13,497 nt of DNA, from the IMG/VR virus record IMGVR_UViG_3300028532_000009; one strand, 5' to 3'. Shown piece by piece: positions 3,109-13,497 of this stretch; within the stretch, counting starts at the first letter, position 1, and the number at the start of each line of letters is the position of its first letter. The DNA is from a virus. Its lineage: Duplodnaviria; Heunggongvirae; Uroviricota; Caudoviricetes. The position numbers and the translations under genes were made by a program. The notes below the pieces were generated by a model that saw only the letters and a program-made list of their open reading frames with translations, was not told the DNA's origin and did not search any database.

Positions 3109-3561
3109 ATGGAATTCGAAATTAAAGGCGTGAAATATCGCACGGCAAAACTCAGCGTTTTTGACCAGTTGAAAGTGACCCGCAAACTTCTGCCGGTGCT
3201 GGCAGGAATGATGTCAGATTTCGGGAGCATTCGCTCCCGTTTGCCTGCTGATGGCAAAATCGACACCGTGAAATTCGAGCAGTTAAAACCGGTGTTTGAA
3301 ACCATGCTCCCGCGTATCGCTGAGGAACTGTCTTCCCTGACCGAAGATGACACCGATGCGATTATTCATCCCTGTCTTGCGGTGGTATCGCGGCGTCATA
3401 TGGACGGATGGGTGCCAGTATTTACTCGGGGCGAACTGATGTTTGATGATATTGACCTGCTGGTCATGCTTCATCTGGTGGCGCGGGTGGTCGCCGATTC
3501 GCTGGGAAATTTTTTGCCTACACCCCTTACCAGCACGACGCAGAGCCTGCAACAGGGCTGA
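3109..3561 (+). CDS. Tail assembly chaperone (150 aa), zero-frame product
   Basis: ATG 3109 with GGGGAG (3094-3099) upstream, stop TGA 3559-3561. Lies immediately 5' of the tape measure gene and contains an in-phase slippery run followed by an open -1 frame (see next two features). Confidence 0.65.
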   Translation: MEFEIKGVKYRTAKLSVFDQLKVTRKLLPVLAGMMSDFGSIRSRLPADGKIDTVKFEQLKPVFETMLPRIAEELSSLTEDDTDAIIHPCLAVVSRRHMDGWVPVFTRGELMFDDIDLLVMLHLVARVVADSLGNFLPTPLTSTTQSLQQG

Positions 3562-3749
3562 CGTTTAACAGCCTGCCGGACGGGCTGTCCTACCTTCTCA
3601 ATCCGGTTGACGCCGGGTTAATTCCTTATACAGCACTTAAAGATGGCTCTGTCGATTTGTACGACATTGCTCTCTTGAATGACCATCTGGCGGTAAAAGC
3701 GGATAACCAGCGGCGCATTGAGAAATGGAGAGAGGATAATGAACGCTGA
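3109..3749 (+). CDS. Tail assembly chaperone, putative -1 frameshift fusion product (~213 aa)
   Basis: The -1 frame relative to the chaperone is open from 3456 to TGA 3747-3749. A slip at T_TTT_TTG (3510-3516) would append ~79 codons (FAYTPYQHDAEPATGLTFNSLPDGLSYLLNPVDAGLIPYTALKDGSVDLYDIALLNDHLAVKADNQRRIEKWREDNER) that read like genuine protein. Analogous to the lambda G/GT arrangement. Confidence 0.45.
3510..3516 (+). other. Candidate -1 ribosomal slippery heptamer T_TTT_TTG
   Basis: Six consecutive T then G, phased as X_XXY_YYZ in the chaperone frame (codons AAT 3508-3510, TTT 3511-3513, TTG 3514-3516). It lies inside the ~105-nt overlap between the zero frame and the open -1 frame. Confidence 0.4.
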
Positions 3750-5745
3750 AACTATTAAAGATTTCCTCGTCTCGCTTGGCTTCAGTGTGGATGATGCAGG
3801 AGCGAAAAAGTTCGGTTCTGTCCTCGCCGGTACAACTGCAAATGTCATCAAAATGGGGCTGGCCGTCGAAGGAACTGCACTGTCCGTGGTGGCCTTCACG
3901 GCTAAGATCGCCTCCGGTCTGGATAATCTTTACTGGGCGTCACAGCGCACCGGCGCGACGGTCCATGGAATTCAGTCTATTGGCTATGCGGTTTCGCAGG
4001 TTGGCGGCAGTGCAGACGCTGCGCGCGGGTCACTGGAGAGCCTTGCCCGTTTTATCCGTAATAGCCCCGGGGCTGAGGGATTTCTGAATCGCCTGGGCGT
4101 ACAGACCCGTGATGCCAGCGGTAACATGCGTGACATGGCTGCTATCTTTACGGGCGTTGGACAGAAACTCAGCAGCATGCCGTATTACCGGGCTAACCAG
4201 TATGCGCAGATGCTGGGCATTGACGAAAATACCCTGATGGCTATGCGTCGCGGAGTGGGGCAGTTCAGCGCTCAGTATTCAGAAATGGTGAAAGCGATCG
4301 GATTTAATGCCGATCAGGCTGCCTTATCGTCAAACCGGTTTATGACCTCGCTGAAATCGCTCGGTGAAATGGCCGGGATGGCGCGGGACAAAATCGGATC
4401 GAATCTTGCGGACGGACTGGCGGGGCAGATTGATAACCTGCGCAAAAAGATAATTGAAAATTTTCCCAAAATTGAAGTCACCATCACAAAGGTCATAAAA
4501 GGGATCCTCTGGCTGGGTGAGATAGTCGGGCGGGTTGCATTTCGGATAGTCGATGGTGTCGGAGATATCATCGAGTGGTGGGGAAAACTGGATGCCGAAA
4601 CGAAAACCCTGATAGAGGTTATCGGCGGCCTGGTTGTCGCCATGCGGATACTTAACTCTACTTTCTGGATGTCACCTATAGGGCTGATTACTGGTCTGAT
4701 CGTGGCTCTCGGTCTCTTGTGGGAAGACTACAAAACATGGAAAGAAGGCGGTAACAGCCTTATCGACTGGGAAAAATGGCAACCGGCAATAGATAAAGCG
4801 AAGGATGCGATCACCTGGTTCCGCGACAAATTACTCGAGCTGAAAGACAGCGTGGGGGGATGGCAAAAATCACTGGAAATCCTCGGTACATTCATCGCGG
4901 GTGTCTGGATATCCAAGGTTCTGGGGGCTTTCGGAAAAATATCAGGTTTGCCGGTCCCAGCCTGGCTTAAATTGTGGGCGCTTTACGCAGGTTATATTGT
5001 TAGTGACAGAGAAAATATTGCCGATAGCGCAAAATCTTCACTGAGGTATACGAAGCGAATTATCGGCGACACGCTGGCTGCTATTGGTATAAAAACAGAT
5101 ATCGGACGCAGGGATGTCAGTGAGGTCCGTGAATGGCCTGCGTGGATGGACTGGTTGCACGGGGGACCCGGTAAAGTTATCCGGCAGGGACAGAGTAACG
5201 GTGTAGTGCATGGCTCCAACGTCCAGCCCGACATCCCCGGCGGCGGTACTCTTGCTGATCGCAACAATAACCCCGGGAACATTCGCCCGGTGAGCGGTAA
5301 AGGGTTCCGGTTTTTCGAATCAGCTCTTGAGGGCTGGGAGGCGATGAAAAACCAGCTCATGCGTTACTTTACCGGGAAAACAACCGGACGAGCATTACAG
5401 ACTATTCAGGATATTGTCAGTACCTGGGCCCCGGCAGGTGATAACAACGATCCGAAAAAGTATGCACAGGATGTTGCGAAATGGATGGGAGTATCACCGA
5501 ATGCAATATTGAATCTTACAGATCCCCAGACTATGGGAGCATTGATGCAGTCGATGGCGCGCAAAGAAGGTTATTCAAACTGGAACAGCCCGCTGGCGTA
5601 TCAGGCCGCCGCTGGCAGCCTTAACCAGCAGACTGTTATAAATGTTCATGGAGTTAACAACCCTCAGGAGGCGGCTAATCTGATCGCTGACAAGCAGGGG
5701 GCTGTAAATGCCAGGGCGGTACAGCAATTGAAAGGACCTGCGTAA
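3739..5745 (+). CDS. Tail tape measure protein (668 aa)
   Basis: ATG 3739 preceded by GGAGAGAGG (3726-3734); the ORF-track start at 3718 is a TTG with no RBS. Largest gene in the cluster, located after the chaperone. Two long hydrophobic segments (about 4610-4725 and 4873-5010) and a hydrophilic C-terminal module. Confidence 0.85.
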   Translation: MNAETIKDFLVSLGFSVDDAGAKKFGSVLAGTTANVIKMGLAVEGTALSVVAFTAKIASGLDNLYWASQRTGATVHGIQSIGYAVSQVGGSADAARGSLESLARFIRNSPGAEGFLNRLGVQTRDASGNMRDMAAIFTGVGQKLSSMPYYRANQYAQMLGIDENTLMAMRRGVGQFSAQYSEMVKAIGFNADQAALSSNRFMTSLKSLGEMAGMARDKIGSNLADGLAGQIDNLRKKIIENFPKIEVTITKVIKGILWLGEIVGRVAFRIVDGVGDIIEWWGKLDAETKTLIEVIGGLVVAMRILNSTFWMSPIGLITGLIVALGLLWEDYKTWKEGGNSLIDWEKWQPAIDKAKDAITWFRDKLLELKDSVGGWQKSLEILGTFIAGVWISKVLGAFGKISGLPVPAWLKLWALYAGYIVSDRENIADSAKSSLRYTKRIIGDTLAAIGIKTDIGRRDVSEVREWPAWMDWLHGGPGKVIRQGQSNGVVHGSNVQPDIPGGGTLADRNNNPGNIRPVSGKGFRFFESALEGWEAMKNQLMRYFTGKTTGRALQTIQDIVSTWAPAGDNNDPKKYAQDVAKWMGVSPNAILNLTDPQTMGALMQSMARKEGYSNWNSPLAYQAAAGSLNQQTVINVHGVNNPQEAANLIADKQGAVNARAVQQLKGPA

Positions 5746-8067: not shown

Positions 8068-8142
8068 ATTACATTGGCGTCCAGCTTCTGCAGAACAGCA
8101 TGGATGCGCCGAAAATCATCGGTTCCTTTCCATGCAAAAAGA

Positions 8143-8170
8143 TTGTTGATTAATCACTCGTAATTATAAT
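8143..8170 (+). promoter_or_regulatory. Sigma70-like promoter for the small membrane-protein gene
   Basis: TTGTTG (8143-8148), 16-bp spacer, consensus TATAAT (8165-8170), about 37 nt upstream of ATG 8207. Short inverted repeat ATCAC (8153-8157) / GTGAT (8171-8175) brackets the -10 box and could be an operator. Confidence 0.5.
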
Positions 8171-8206
8171 GTGATACTTCTACTTTCACGATAAGGAATT
8201 TGTCAC

Positions 8207-8446
8207 ATGTTCGGATTTGATAAATTAATAACTCCAAAAATCATCAACGTTCTGTATGGCATCACAATGTTACTTCTGGTTGTTGCCGCCATTATAACGT
8301 TTGTTAATGGGAAGGCTGCTGGCGCTTTAGTGCTTTTGTTATGTGCTGTATTTTGCCGAATATTCTTTGAGTGCATCATGGTTTCATTTAAAAACAATGA
8401 GTATCTTCGCCGAATAGCTGAAGCGTTAGAAGCAAACAAGCAGTAA
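8207..8446 (+). CDS. Small two-helix inner-membrane protein (79 aa), possibly DUF4282-like; accessory (moron) gene
   Basis: ATG 8207 with AAGGA (8193-8197) upstream. Two hydrophobic helices (INVLYGITMLLLVVAAIITFV and ALVLLLCAVFCRIFFECIMVSF) and an amphipathic charged tail. The N-terminal FGFDKLITPKIINVLYGI motif matches my recollection of DUF4282 small membrane proteins (unverified). Has its own promoter and terminator and is AT-rich. Confidence 0.7.
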   Translation: MFGFDKLITPKIINVLYGITMLLLVVAAIITFVNGKAAGALVLLLCAVFCRIFFECIMVSFKNNEYLRRIAEALEANKQ

Positions 8447-8462
8447 TGAAACTTCAATAATG

Positions 8463-10810: not shown

Positions 10811-11487
10811 GCAAATACACCGAACTAATCACGAACTACCACGCCACCAAACCTAAATTTCTTGCACATGTTGATCTGATGACCCGGCCGCTTATTGATG
10901 TTGCGGCTGCCACCAGAGGGCTGATTACTGCATTTGATATTGACTCTGCGGTTGGTGTGCAACTTGACATTCTGGGATTGTGGATCGGACGTAGCCGTGT
11001 TGTCAGCCAGCCTATTTCAGGTGTTTATTTCAGCTGGGATACCGACGGGCTTGGATATGATCAGGGTGTATGGCAGGGGCCATACGATCCTGATTCCGGA
11101 TACATGTACCTCAGCGATGAAACTTATCGTGTCATCCTTAAAGCGAAGATTGCGATTAATAACTGGGACGGACGGAATGATTCGCTTCCGGCAATTCTTG
11201 ACGCGGCAACAGCAGGATCCGGACTGCGAATGCAGATAGTCGATAACCAGGACATGACGATATCGGTCTGGGTCTTTCCTGATACTGATATTTCAGATGT
11301 ATCGCGTGAGTTAATTGCGGCAATTAAACAGGGGTATCTCACAGTAAAAGCCGCCGGGGTATGGGCGGGTGGCATTGAAACACCTTCGGTGGAAACCCCA
11401 TCGGAAGGCTCAAAATTTTTTGGTTTTGATATGGATAACGAATTCATCAGTGGTTTTGATGTAGGGGCATGGGGAGTATTACTCTGA
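10807..11487 (+). CDS. Baseplate/tail protein, Mu gp48 / YmfQ (DUF2313)-like (226 aa)
   Basis: ATG 10807 in ATGA overlap with the J-like gene. Lies immediately upstream of the tail fibre gene, as gp48/XkdU/YmfQ-type proteins do. Confidence 0.65.
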   Translation: MSKYTELITNYHATKPKFLAHVDLMTRPLIDVAAATRGLITAFDIDSAVGVQLDILGLWIGRSRVVSQPISGVYFSWDTDGLGYDQGVWQGPYDPDSGYMYLSDETYRVILKAKIAINNWDGRNDSLPAILDAATAGSGLRMQIVDNQDMTISVWVFPDTDISDVSRELIAAIKQGYLTVKAAGVWAGGIETPSVETPSEGSKFFGFDMDNEFISGFDVGAWGVLL

Positions 11488-12554
11488 TGGCAAAAAATGA
11501 CTTTAAAGCATTCGCAACGGGTAAAAATGCCAATGTTATGCCGCAGGAGGAATGGGAAGCGTTGCCTGCGCTTTTATCCGGATTTACAGCAGGGAAAGCA
11601 TCCAGTGCGCAGGTGAACAAAGCCATTCGACAGGCCAGCTTTATTACGGCAGCGCTTGCACAGTACACAGCTAATAAAAGTGGGCTGGATGTGCTTGATG
11701 ATGGTGACCTGAACGGGTTTATCTCCAAAATGGAAGCGGCTTTGGGGAAGGATTTCCAGGCGCTTGACGCCACGCTCACTGCACTGGCAGGCCTTGCCAC
11801 TGCGGCAGACAAACTACCGTATTTTACGGGGAATGATACAGCCAGCCTGACAACCCTGACTAATGTTGGACGGGATATTCTGGCTAAAACAAGCAAACAG
11901 GAGGTTATTCATTATCTTGGTTTGGGAGCTACAAACGGATACGTGGGACGCTTGGTGAATACCCGGGTTTTCACGTCATCAGGTACGTACACCCCGACGC
12001 CAGGAACAAAACGGATCAGGGTCACAATAACGGGCGGCGGTGGCGGAGGGGGCGGCTGCAAGGCTATATCCAATAATGAAACGTTTTTCGGTGCTGGCGG
12101 TGGGGCCGGTGGAACAATAATGTCAATAATGACCCCGACACAGAATAGTTATCCAGTCACTATCGGCGCAGGTGGGGCCGGTGGTGTTAGTGCGACTTAC
12201 GGCATCAATGGCGGTAATAGCTTATTCGCATCGTTAATTGCTCCTGGTGGCGCAGGCGGCGGAAAATCAGGAGTCACAAACACAAACGGTGGTAACGGAG
12301 GTGTGCCGAGTACTGGCGATATAAACATCATTGGTGGATGTGGAGGCGACGGTCAGTCCGGAAATATCGGCGTTAGCGGTGAAGGCGGAACATCGTACTG
12401 GGGTGGCGGTGGACGCGCAGGCGCTGGCGGTGGTGTTAGCGGCAAGGCATATGGTTCAGGTGGCGGTGGTGCATACGATGCCGGTTATAGCGGAACCAGT
12501 ATGACGGGCGGGAAAGGCGCTGCAGGGATTTGTATTATCGAGGAGTTTGCATAA
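11487..12554 (+). CDS. Tail fibre protein (355 aa) with glycine-rich C-terminal receptor-binding region
   Basis: ATG 11487 overlaps the previous stop (TGATG) with GGGGAG (11471-11476) upstream; an in-frame ATG at 11469 is an alternative start. N-terminal fibre-like region followed by a C-terminal half dominated by poly-Gly motifs. Followed directly by a tail fibre assembly gene. Confidence 0.75.
   Translation: MAKNDFKAFATGKNANVMPQEEWEALPALLSGFTAGKASSAQVNKAIRQASFITAALAQYTANKSGLDVLDDGDLNGFISKMEAALGKDFQALDATLTALAGLATAADKLPYFTGNDTASLTTLTNVGRDILAKTSKQEVIHYLGLGATNGYVGRLVNTRVFTSSGTYTPTPGTKRIRVTITGGGGGGGGCKAISNNETFFGAGGGAGGTIMSIMTPTQNSYPVTIGAGGAGGVSATYGINGGNSLFASLIAPGGAGGGKSGVTNTNGGNGGVPSTGDINIIGGCGGDGQSGNIGVSGEGGTSYWGGGGRAGAGGGVSGKAYGSGGGGAYDAGYSGTSMTGGKGAAGICIIEEFA
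12033..12056 (+). repeat. (GGN)8 codon tract encoding eight consecutive glycines
   Basis: ggc ggc ggt ggc gga ggg ggc ggc read directly in the fibre frame. Further GGN-rich runs follow through ~12500. Confidence 0.85.
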
Positions 12555-12964
12555 TGAATACGTCATATGCAGTTATTGAAAATGGGATGGTTGTGAATGT
12601 CATTGTCTGGGATGGCGAGGCTGAATTCACAGTGCCGGATAATCAGCAGCTCATTGATATTTCTGATATCAGTGAGCATCCCGGAATCGGCTGGGGGTAT
12701 TCAGACGGGGTATTTACTGCGCCGCTCCCTCCGGAACGTTCTCATGATGAACTGGTAGCTGACGCTGAACAGAAAAAACAGTCGCTGACAGACGCAGCAA
12801 TGGCTAATATCAGCGTGATTCAGTTAAAGCTGCAGGCCGGGCGCAAACTGACGCAAGAAGAAACTACCCGACTTAACGTTGTGCTGGATTATATCGACGC
12901 TGTGACGGCAACAGATACCAGCACCGCACCGGATGTCATCTGGCCTGAACTGCCGGAGGCGTAG
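12554..12964 (+). CDS. tfa: Tail fibre assembly chaperone (136 aa)
   Basis: ATG 12554 overlaps the fibre stop (TAATG) with GAGGAG (12540-12545) upstream. C-terminus LDYIDAVTATDTSTAPDVIWPELPEA matches the conserved Tfa C-terminal motif (lambda Tfa ends ...RVDTSTAPDIEWPAVP..., recalled from memory). Confidence 0.8.
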   Translation: MNTSYAVIENGMVVNVIVWDGEAEFTVPDNQQLIDISDISEHPGIGWGYSDGVFTAPLPPERSHDELVADAEQKKQSLTDAAMANISVIQLKLQAGRKLTQEETTRLNVVLDYIDAVTATDTSTAPDVIWPELPEA

Positions 12965-13043
12965 GCCATTCAATATCTGGCGCACCGGAAGTATCGACCA
13001 GTTCCAGTGCGTCCAGATAATCCAGCCACAAATTATATTGCAT
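12936..13043 (-). pseudogene. C-terminal fragment of a second, convergent tail fibre assembly gene (tfa-prime remnant)
   Basis: Minus-strand translation gives ...EELLMQYNLWLDYLDALELVDTSGAPDIEWPTPPAVQAR-stop (stop at 12936-12938). This parallels the plus-strand Tfa C-terminus motif for motif (LDY-DA...DTS-APD-WP). Only ~35 codons remain, with no N-terminal domain and no RBS. Confidence 0.6.
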
Positions 13044-13129
13044 CAGGAGTTCCTCGCCAGAAGGTGGCGATCATTTATGATGTTGGCGTATCGACTTTGT
13101 ATAAGAAGTTTCCGGTCGGAGATAAATGA
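13028..13129 (+). pseudogene. C-terminal remnant of a Pin/Gin-family serine DNA invertase (HTH tail only)
   Basis: Plus-strand frame encodes ...NYIASGVPRQKVAIIYDVGVSTLYKKFPVGDK-stop (TGA 13127-13129). This closely matches the C-terminal HTH of the e14 Pin invertase as I recall it (...IAAGTPRQKVAIIYDVGVSTLYKRFPAGDK). Upstream in the same frame the sequence is unrelated, and no other frame encodes the catalytic domain. Confidence 0.65.
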
Positions 13130-13497
13130 AACCGTAGCACGTCGTATGCAAGAACGTGCCACGGCTGGCTGATGGACGTTCGATAGCGCGAGTTTGAATG
13201 AAAATCAGCCGGAGGTGATTTTACATAATTGTTGCGGAATCATTCAATATAGGGATTGCTTATTTCTGCCTGGATTGGTCTGAAATAGTCCCGAAATTTT
13301 CTCTAAAAAACTCGAAAAAAATGGTAACTAATTGAATGCATTAATATGCAATGGTACGTGTTTGGGATTAAAAGATGAGCGTAATTTTGCTTAACAAATT
13401 AATTTAAAAAGGGTTTCTTGTTTGTTGACGAAAACAGGAATCGTGTTCGGTCTCTTTTTATCTGTTAAAAGCCAGAAGCATTTCCTTCGCTGACTTT

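Follow-up and report, generated by a model that had tools for sequence, protein, structure and literature searches.

The analysed window, a stretch of 13,497 nucleotides, is the reverse complement of E. coli R1 sequence (NZ_CP031706.1), identical over the tested stretch, and holds the right-end tail, baseplate and fibre genes of a ~41-kb prophage between yebY and pphA (window coordinates are L001 coordinates minus 3601). The modules of the R1 prophage comprise integrase, excisionase, recombination, repressor, replication, lysis, terminase, head and tail genes, and beyond the features described here only one other pseudogene is annotated in it. At the right end of the window a tail-fibre gene and its assembly gene tfa are followed by remnants of a second assembly gene, tfa', and of a serine invertase gene, pin, and by two hairpins (Table 1).

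Table 1. Features at the right end of the window (positions in the window; strand as + or -)
Feature	Position	Strand	Basis or character
Tail-fibre gene	11487..12554	+	family-specific N-terminal anchor; glycine-rich distal 265-aa tip
Vestigial left crossover (pix-like) site, TTATTCATTATC TT GGTTTGGGAGCT	11905..11930	+	comparison with pixL/pixR of L004, L006 and L007
Tail-fibre assembly gene tfa, 136 aa, expressed orientation	12554..12964	+	Caudo_TAP, 74.9 bits
Remnant of alternative assembly gene tfa': last ~34 codons and stop, ending ...QYNLWLDYLDALELVDTSGAPDIEWPTPPAVQAR	12936..13041	-	homology
Deletion junction, 5-bp microhomology ATTGC	13037..13041		three-way alignments with intact loci
Remnant of PinE-type serine invertase gene: codons 155-184 and TGA stop	13037..13129	+	homology
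Two stable hairpins directly after the invertase stop	13132..13212	+	RNA fold

The prophage is inserted in the ryeA/sdsR small-RNA locus upstream of pphA (window 13225-13497). Homology common to all 5426 E. coli genomes starts at 13429, and sub-threshold Rfam matches to SraC_RyeA and SdsR_RyeB were found at 13360-13463. In Salmonella, phages are known to integrate into this pair of sRNAs (review: PMC7380047). The stretch 13162-13428 is shared by 228 genomes, which indicates that other elements use the same integration site. Further upstream, a variable cargo slot lies between baseplate genes at ~8068-8462, where the backbone homology breaks; it holds a DUF4282 gene (8207-8446) in R1, a Phd/Doc toxin-antitoxin in Br_190_kylling, and a TPR protein and a hypothetical gene in JNE23-001.

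The plus-strand frame 12965-13129 translates to AIQYLAHRKYRPVPVRPDNPATNYIASGVPRQKVAIIYDVGVSTLYKKFPVGDK, followed by a stop codon, and ends with ...NYIASGVPRQKVAIIYDVGVSTLYKKFPVGDK. Its last 30 residues were identical (30/30) to residues 155-184 of the intact 184-aa PinE of strain CX05 (WP_000904992.1) and similar to residues 155-181 of Gin (PDB 4m6f, 3uj3; E=1e-6) and to the DNA-binding domain of Hin (1hcr; E=7e-6). The Pfam HTH_7 score was 29.2 bits (cut-off 23.8), covering only profile positions 19-43 of 45. The stub shows the C-terminal HTH_7 homology of small serine DNA invertases and corresponds to helices 2-3; it lacks helix 1, the GRRPK minor-groove arm and the catalytic domain, and a complete DNA-binding domain of arm and three helices is not present. 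The residues that precede position 155 in intact PinE (...GGRRPKLSPEQWAQSGRL) are absent from the window. At the DNA level the stub is 91.5% identical to positions 5001-5189 of the CX05 locus L004. As judged from its sequence, the identity of the stub as an invertase remnant is real, far beyond chance. The initial annotation had taken 13028-13129 for the C-terminal helix-turn-helix of a Pin/Gin-type invertase; the protein searches confirm the family and the end at 13129, whereas the true invertase homology starts at 13037 and not at 13028, because the codons upstream of it ('ATNY') are antisense of tfa' and not invertase. The risk of mis-calling that it had raised is not a practical problem, as PGAP already annotates the tfa' and helix-turn-helix fragments as partial pseudogenes. 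In another frame a 79-aa arginine-rich ORF (12933-13172) spans the scar and is also open in L013, L016 and L017; with no Pfam family and no PGAP call, it was treated as probably spurious.

Searches with tblastn revealed no credible match for PinE residues 1-154 in the window, where only residues 155-184 were found. Across ~68 kb, comprising the whole prophage and its flanks, only residues 153-184 were recovered and no catalytic domain, in line with the earlier statement that no frame encodes it. The stub does not include the N-terminal Resolvase domain with its nucleophilic catalytic serine (YVRVST motif). A weak tblastn match on the minus strand at 13384-13259 was considered as a hidden or relocated catalytic domain; with an E-value of about 0.03-0.13, interrupted by a stop codon and devoid of the catalytic motif and of any Pfam match, it is regarded as chance. 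In the genes for Gin, Cin, Pin and Hin, the recombinational enhancer sits inside the 5' part of the invertase gene. Alignment to intact loci showed that the 5' 462 bp of this gene are missing from the window, and therefore the enhancer cannot be at its normal place.

On the opposite strand, the tfa' remnant extends from 13041 down to its stop codon at 12936-12938, and the minus strand from 13058 to 12960 reads GEELLMQYNLWLDYLDALELVDTSGAPDIEWPT. It scores 34.7 bits against Caudo_TAP (profile positions 101-128 of 131) and shares 88% identity with the C-terminal end of CX05 Tfa' (tblastn, residues 100-139); its DNA is 97% identical to L007, where tfa' is full. The minus-strand fragment does not hold a full Caudo_TAP domain in an ORF with a start codon, and its frame is cut at the junction. 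The remnant overlaps about the last 30 nt of tfa, and the same overlap is seen in intact loci. The tfa gene itself looks intact: its Caudo_TAP match covers profile positions 25-131 of 131, a GAGGAG ribosome-binding site lies 8 nt 5' of the ATG (12554), and its DNA is 97% identical to tfa of P2-like and same-family prophages. PGAP labels tfa a pseudogene with 'missing N-terminus' (12614-12964), which is probably an over-call; in K99B and JNE23-001, short tfa genes of almost the same sequence carry an intact annotation.

The two remnants meet at the pentanucleotide ATTGC, which is common to the antisense strand of tfa' and to pin codon 155; no filler DNA is present. The window reads ...CCACAAATTAT-ATTGC-ATCAGGAGTTCC..., the parental sequences are ...ATTATATTGCGCCAGTTCCTCACC on the tfa' side and ...GACTAATTGCATCAGGAGTTCCTCGCC on the pin side, and the pentanucleotide is embedded in a wider patch of imperfect similarity (ATTGC..AGTTCCTC). 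The initial annotation had let the invertase homology begin where the tfa' remnant ends, around 13030-13040, and the alignments place the meeting point within or next to this interval, at the junction given in Table 1. As intact reference for the size of the deletion we used the CX05 locus L004 with the layout fibre, tfa, tfa' (-), Sv' (-), pinE. Two stretches of L004 align with the window: 3531-3807, which holds the ends of tfa and tfa', and 5001-5189, which holds pin from codon 155 on and downstream DNA. The ATTGC copies of L004 lie at 3789-3793 and 5001-5005, and the distance between them, 1212 bp, is missing from the window; it comprises tfa' codons 1 to ~105, Sv', the right crossover site, the spacer 5' of pin, and pin codons 1-154. 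The comparison with intact relatives that had been proposed showed both flanks of the window to be collinear with the intact fibre-tfa-tfa'-Sv'-pix-pin loci L004, L006 and L007. Given this collinearity, one 1212-bp deletion at a 5-bp microhomology would explain the junction. A single microhomology-mediated deletion is the simplest and most parsimonious explanation, and we infer one step, in agreement with the earlier proposal that one deletion had removed the N-terminal part of tfa', the alternative fibre tip, a crossover site and most of the invertase. A pair of nested deletions would give the same junction, and so would illegitimate recombination between co-resident prophages.

The single crossover site of the window falls at the ...HYLGLGA... 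junction of the fibre. Its inner half-site and core are kept, and its outer half-site is degenerate, with TTATC for AAACC; CTTGGTTTGGGAG was found once where 0.03 occurrences are expected. The published e14 repeat is TTGGTTTGGGAGAAGG (PMC12529663), and the inverted repeats AAACCTTGGTTTGGGAGAAG / CTTCTCCCAAACCAACGTTT inside both fibre reading frames of CX05 L004 are the e14 P-segment repeats of the same study. The search of the window for a second crossover site that had been suggested, using the pix repeat, the published e14 16-mer and the Gin/Hin-type 26-bp consensus with up to 3 mismatches, gave 0 matches and left only the half-degenerate site at 11905-11930. Matches to AAACCNNGGTTT with 1 mismatch at 3286 and 11959 were considered as crossover sites and are at chance level. 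No match to Sv' was found in the window. Where a switch has two inverted ~26-bp crossover sites and two opposed Sv-tfa cassettes, this locus has one vestigial site and, as its second cassette, ~34 codons of tfa'. Three of the four switch components are lost and the fourth is degraded.

The present fibre matches Pfam Gly_rich_2 with 51 bits, and over residues 97-361 it shares 99% identity with the C-terminus of the P2-like H fibre of strain K99B. Window DNA 11766-12947 is 97.3% identical to the K99B locus, in which the fibre is followed by a short tfa and then the sheath gene, with no switch. This match of tip and tfa to a non-invertible P2-like module explains the half-degenerate left crossover site. 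With phage vB_EcoM-611R5 the fibre gene has its N-terminal ~310 nt in common, and homology to the invertible StfP-type locus L007 begins at 11908, at the crossover site. In L007, from EC20-4B-2, the glycine-rich tip and tfa of the window lie inside the invertible segment (97.2% identity over window 11908-13058). The induced phage vB_EcoM-611R5 shares baseplate genes with the window and has, in the same position, an e14-type segment with both pix repeats; the switch can be taken to have belonged to the phage family of the window.

Three module boundaries cluster around 11905-11930 (L007 at 11908, P1-like plasmid fibres at ~11932 and P2-like fibres at 11766), and the P2-like match over 11766-12947 points to a recent lateral exchange of a receptor-binding module between unrelated myovirus backbones. 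JNE23-001, which has the same backbone, matches the window up to 12934 and then carries an acyltransferase in place of the scar; it retains 48 bp equal to window 13127-13173.

The identical junction was found in 3 of 5426 complete E. coli genomes, namely R1 (integration site ryeA/sdsR-pphA), Br_190_kylling (ybhB/bio) and EcE.CRE.COL (argW/intS; different fibre and a 201-aa tfa). The exact 32-mer across the junction had no match in genome_contigs or viral_contigs; a pattern tolerant of two polymorphic positions detected it in 3 gut-metagenome and 2 IMG/VR contigs. At least 8 independent sequences carry the identical junction, and their backbones, att sites and fibre/tfa cassettes differ. L016 combines it with an e14/Mu-like tail backbone and an intact left pix site, L014 and L017 with DUF2612-type backbones, and L013 and L015 with other fibre/tfa cassettes. 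In all, 5 or more different Sv/tfa cassettes adjoin the scar, and 2 tail backbones carry it. The scar region of the carriers is 88-97% identical, compared with only 67-77% identity to the window for the baseplate genes of L014 and L017; this higher conservation could reflect horizontal spread, which we propose, or some selection on the region. As all carriers have the same breakpoint, the junction goes back to one old event, inherited and moved by recombination, and the deletion can be regarded as inherited or imported and not private to the R1 prophage. The initial annotation had described a deletion that locked this element into one fibre specificity. The single fibre stands and so does the lock, which is both fuller and more layered than a single deletion would make it, with a P2-like tip and tfa and a half-degenerate left site; the deletion is not specific to the element.

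Among the 8 copies of the stub, 5 synonymous and 5 non-synonymous types of variants were found. Of the non-synonymous changes, P160L is present in three copies and falls in the conserved G-x-P-R turn; the others are Q162L, A165V, K178M and K184E. This pattern would fit relaxed constraint, with small counts. A point on the other side is that synonymous variants are at least as frequent as non-synonymous ones, so that dN/dS, calculated from very few variants, falls below 1; this may reflect recombination with intact pin alleles.

Neither a functional invertase nor an invertible segment is present at the locus, which would class it, on sequence grounds, as a pseudogene scar and a decayed member of the Mu G/Gin, P1 C/Cin and e14 P/PinE class, closest to e14. 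We interpret it, with a probability of about 0.88, as the non-functional scar of an invertible tail-fibre switch of the e14/P-segment type, left by a microhomology deletion of ~1.2 kb. The ancestral locus would have had the order fibre (Sc)-pixL-Sv-tfa, followed by tfa'-Sv'-pixR on the opposite strand and then pin. An illegitimate deletion of ~1.2 kb would have fused the antisense 3' end of tfa' to pin codon 155 at ATTGC, taking with it tfa' codons 1 to ~105, Sv', pixR, the promoter region of pin and pin codons 1-154 including YVRVST. The pin enhancer, which lies in the 5' part of the gene in this family, is counted among the deleted parts. What is left would be 30 helix-turn-helix codons devoid of a start codon and a ribosome-binding site, and a fibre fixed in one orientation. 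The deletion probably happened once, in an ancestor, and the scar would then have travelled with the conserved 3' end of tfa into several backbones. As the order of events we infer that the deletion came first and the spread second, and that tip and tfa were replaced last, in the R1/Br190 lineage, with a right-hand crossover that presumably fell in the conserved 3' end of tfa.

The junction could also have arisen in several steps, or by illegitimate recombination of tfa' with pin between prophages, and not by a single in-cis deletion. Mosaicism in the fibre region is heavy, and other tfa'-pin rearrangements are more complex, such as the ST540-type loci with an inserted ClpP gene, or consist of reciprocal truncations in which only the N-terminus of pin is kept. 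Yet both remnants have exactly the order and orientation of the intact loci, and the breakpoint shows its 5-bp microhomology, within the wider similarity patch, and no filler, so we hold such an origin to be improbable. Inverted repeats of invertible segments can confuse assemblers, and the junction might then be an assembly or sequencing artefact that collapses a real invertible segment; this is effectively refuted by eight independent assemblies from different projects and sample types which all have the same junction.

A function of the retained DNA, as a late-operon terminator, the end of a CssrB-like sRNA or a right homology arm, would offer another account of why the scar persists and spreads. 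The hairpins are strong, folding at -37.2 kcal/mol (z=-3.9), and are kept 3' of intact pinE genes, collinear with L004 5094-5189; the 48 bp kept in JNE23-001, the partial CssrB match and the presence of the scar beside several different cassettes would also agree with a function. At 31.7 bits, the similarity of the first hairpin to the one at the 3' end of Rfam CssrB is far under the gathering score of 76, and as only this single hairpin matches, the sRNA reading was rejected. A simple consensus scan called no terminator at 13132-13212, no clear U-run follows the hairpins, and hitch-hiking with the conserved tfa end accounts for the spread without selection. We consider it unlikely that function explains the persistence of the scar; the hairpins may have a candidate role in terminating pin or the late operon. 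In a related reading, to which we give a small chance, the scar would be a portable right-end module (tfa 3' end, both stubs and double hairpin) that serves as homology arm and terminator for swaps of Sv-tfa cassettes. Phages that lack an invertase would then change host range by cassette swap with co-resident prophages and not by inversion, and the occurrence of one junction beside so many cassettes on two tail backbones is compatible with this. Finally, the stub might be expressed as a small helix-turn-helix peptide, from a GTG at 13007 or by read-through of the tfa TAG, and might modulate Pin-type invertases or bind pix. It lies in the tfa frame right after the tfa stop (12962-12964), from where read-through would append 54 residues, its HTH_7 score exceeds the gathering cut-off, and in R1 it is still identical to the intact protein. 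The shared frame, to be expected in 1 of 3 cases by chance, is probably a coincidence. The stub lacks an ATG and a Shine-Dalgarno sequence of its own, the GTG being the only in-frame start candidate; helix 1 and the GRRPK arm are missing, other copies carry the amino acid changes listed above, and PGAP calls it a pseudogene. Such a peptide is very improbable, and the stub of the deleted switch is presumably not expressed.

Read as the scar of a switch, the locus accounts for three small features labelled 'partial' at one end of a ~41-kb prophage that looks complete, and would mean that the phage cannot switch fibres. It records at base-pair resolution the loss of a phase-variable host-range switch at a 5-bp microhomology. 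One scar across several backbones and cassettes illustrates modular exchange around the conserved ends of fibre and chaperone genes, which is mildly useful for host-range evolution. As a degraded phase-variation switch it is routine and a case of ordinary gene decay, and pipelines already flag the fragments. A literature search on this scar or on locked e14-type switches returned only general work and the PinQ/PinE paper. The main value lies in annotation and in reading prophage evolution, and no new question is opened.

Similar switch loci that are broken differently are common. ST540-type L002, EC20-4B-2 L007 and vB_EcoM-611R5 L006 are e14-type switches with a damaged invertase annotated as partial, and their breakpoints differ from the one described here. 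L002 (6537-7787) has a tfa' remnant, behind which come a ClpP-family gene in the opposite orientation and then 134 codons of pin interrupted by a stop; this form of decay is frequent among the best matches listed, with many similar genomes. In L007 (6418-6540) pin is down to 41 N-terminal codons followed by a DUF262 gene, and in L006 (7315-7629) the invertase is C-terminally truncated with ~100 N-terminal codons left. Both L006 and L007 retain two crossover sites and full tfa' and Sv'. From these reciprocal truncations, invertase loss seems to be recurrent in these prophages.

Among working switches, the G segment of Mu with Gin and the C segment of P1 with Cin follow the same principle, in which the fibre gene is split, two Sv-tfa cassettes oppose each other and a small serine invertase is encoded next to them, and P1-like plasmids carry the glycine-rich tip of the window from ~11932 on. 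The Mu and P1 switches work, whereas the window locus derives from such a switch but is fixed, with a single cassette and without a recombinase. The orphan invertases PinQ (Qin) and PinR (Rac) are likewise products of the decay of fibre switches in E. coli prophages, and they act in trans on the e14 segment (PMC12529663). They represent the reciprocal outcome, as the recombinase is kept without an invertible segment of its own, whereas here neither the recombinase nor a second site remains, and therefore even a Pin acting in trans would have no substrate pair at this locus. The closest relative is the P segment of e14 with PinE, represented by its intact homologue CX05 L004. It shares with the window the same 30 aa, the convergent overlap of tfa and tfa', the gene order and orientation, and the crossover repeat TTGGTTTGGGAG, which lies at the LGLG motif of the fibre as here and matches the published repeat (PMC12529663). 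In contrast to e14, the window lacks 1212 bp, the outer half of its left site is degenerate, the expressed fibre tip is a glycine-rich module matching a P2-like one, and the backbone is of a different myovirus type with a DUF2612 baseplate.
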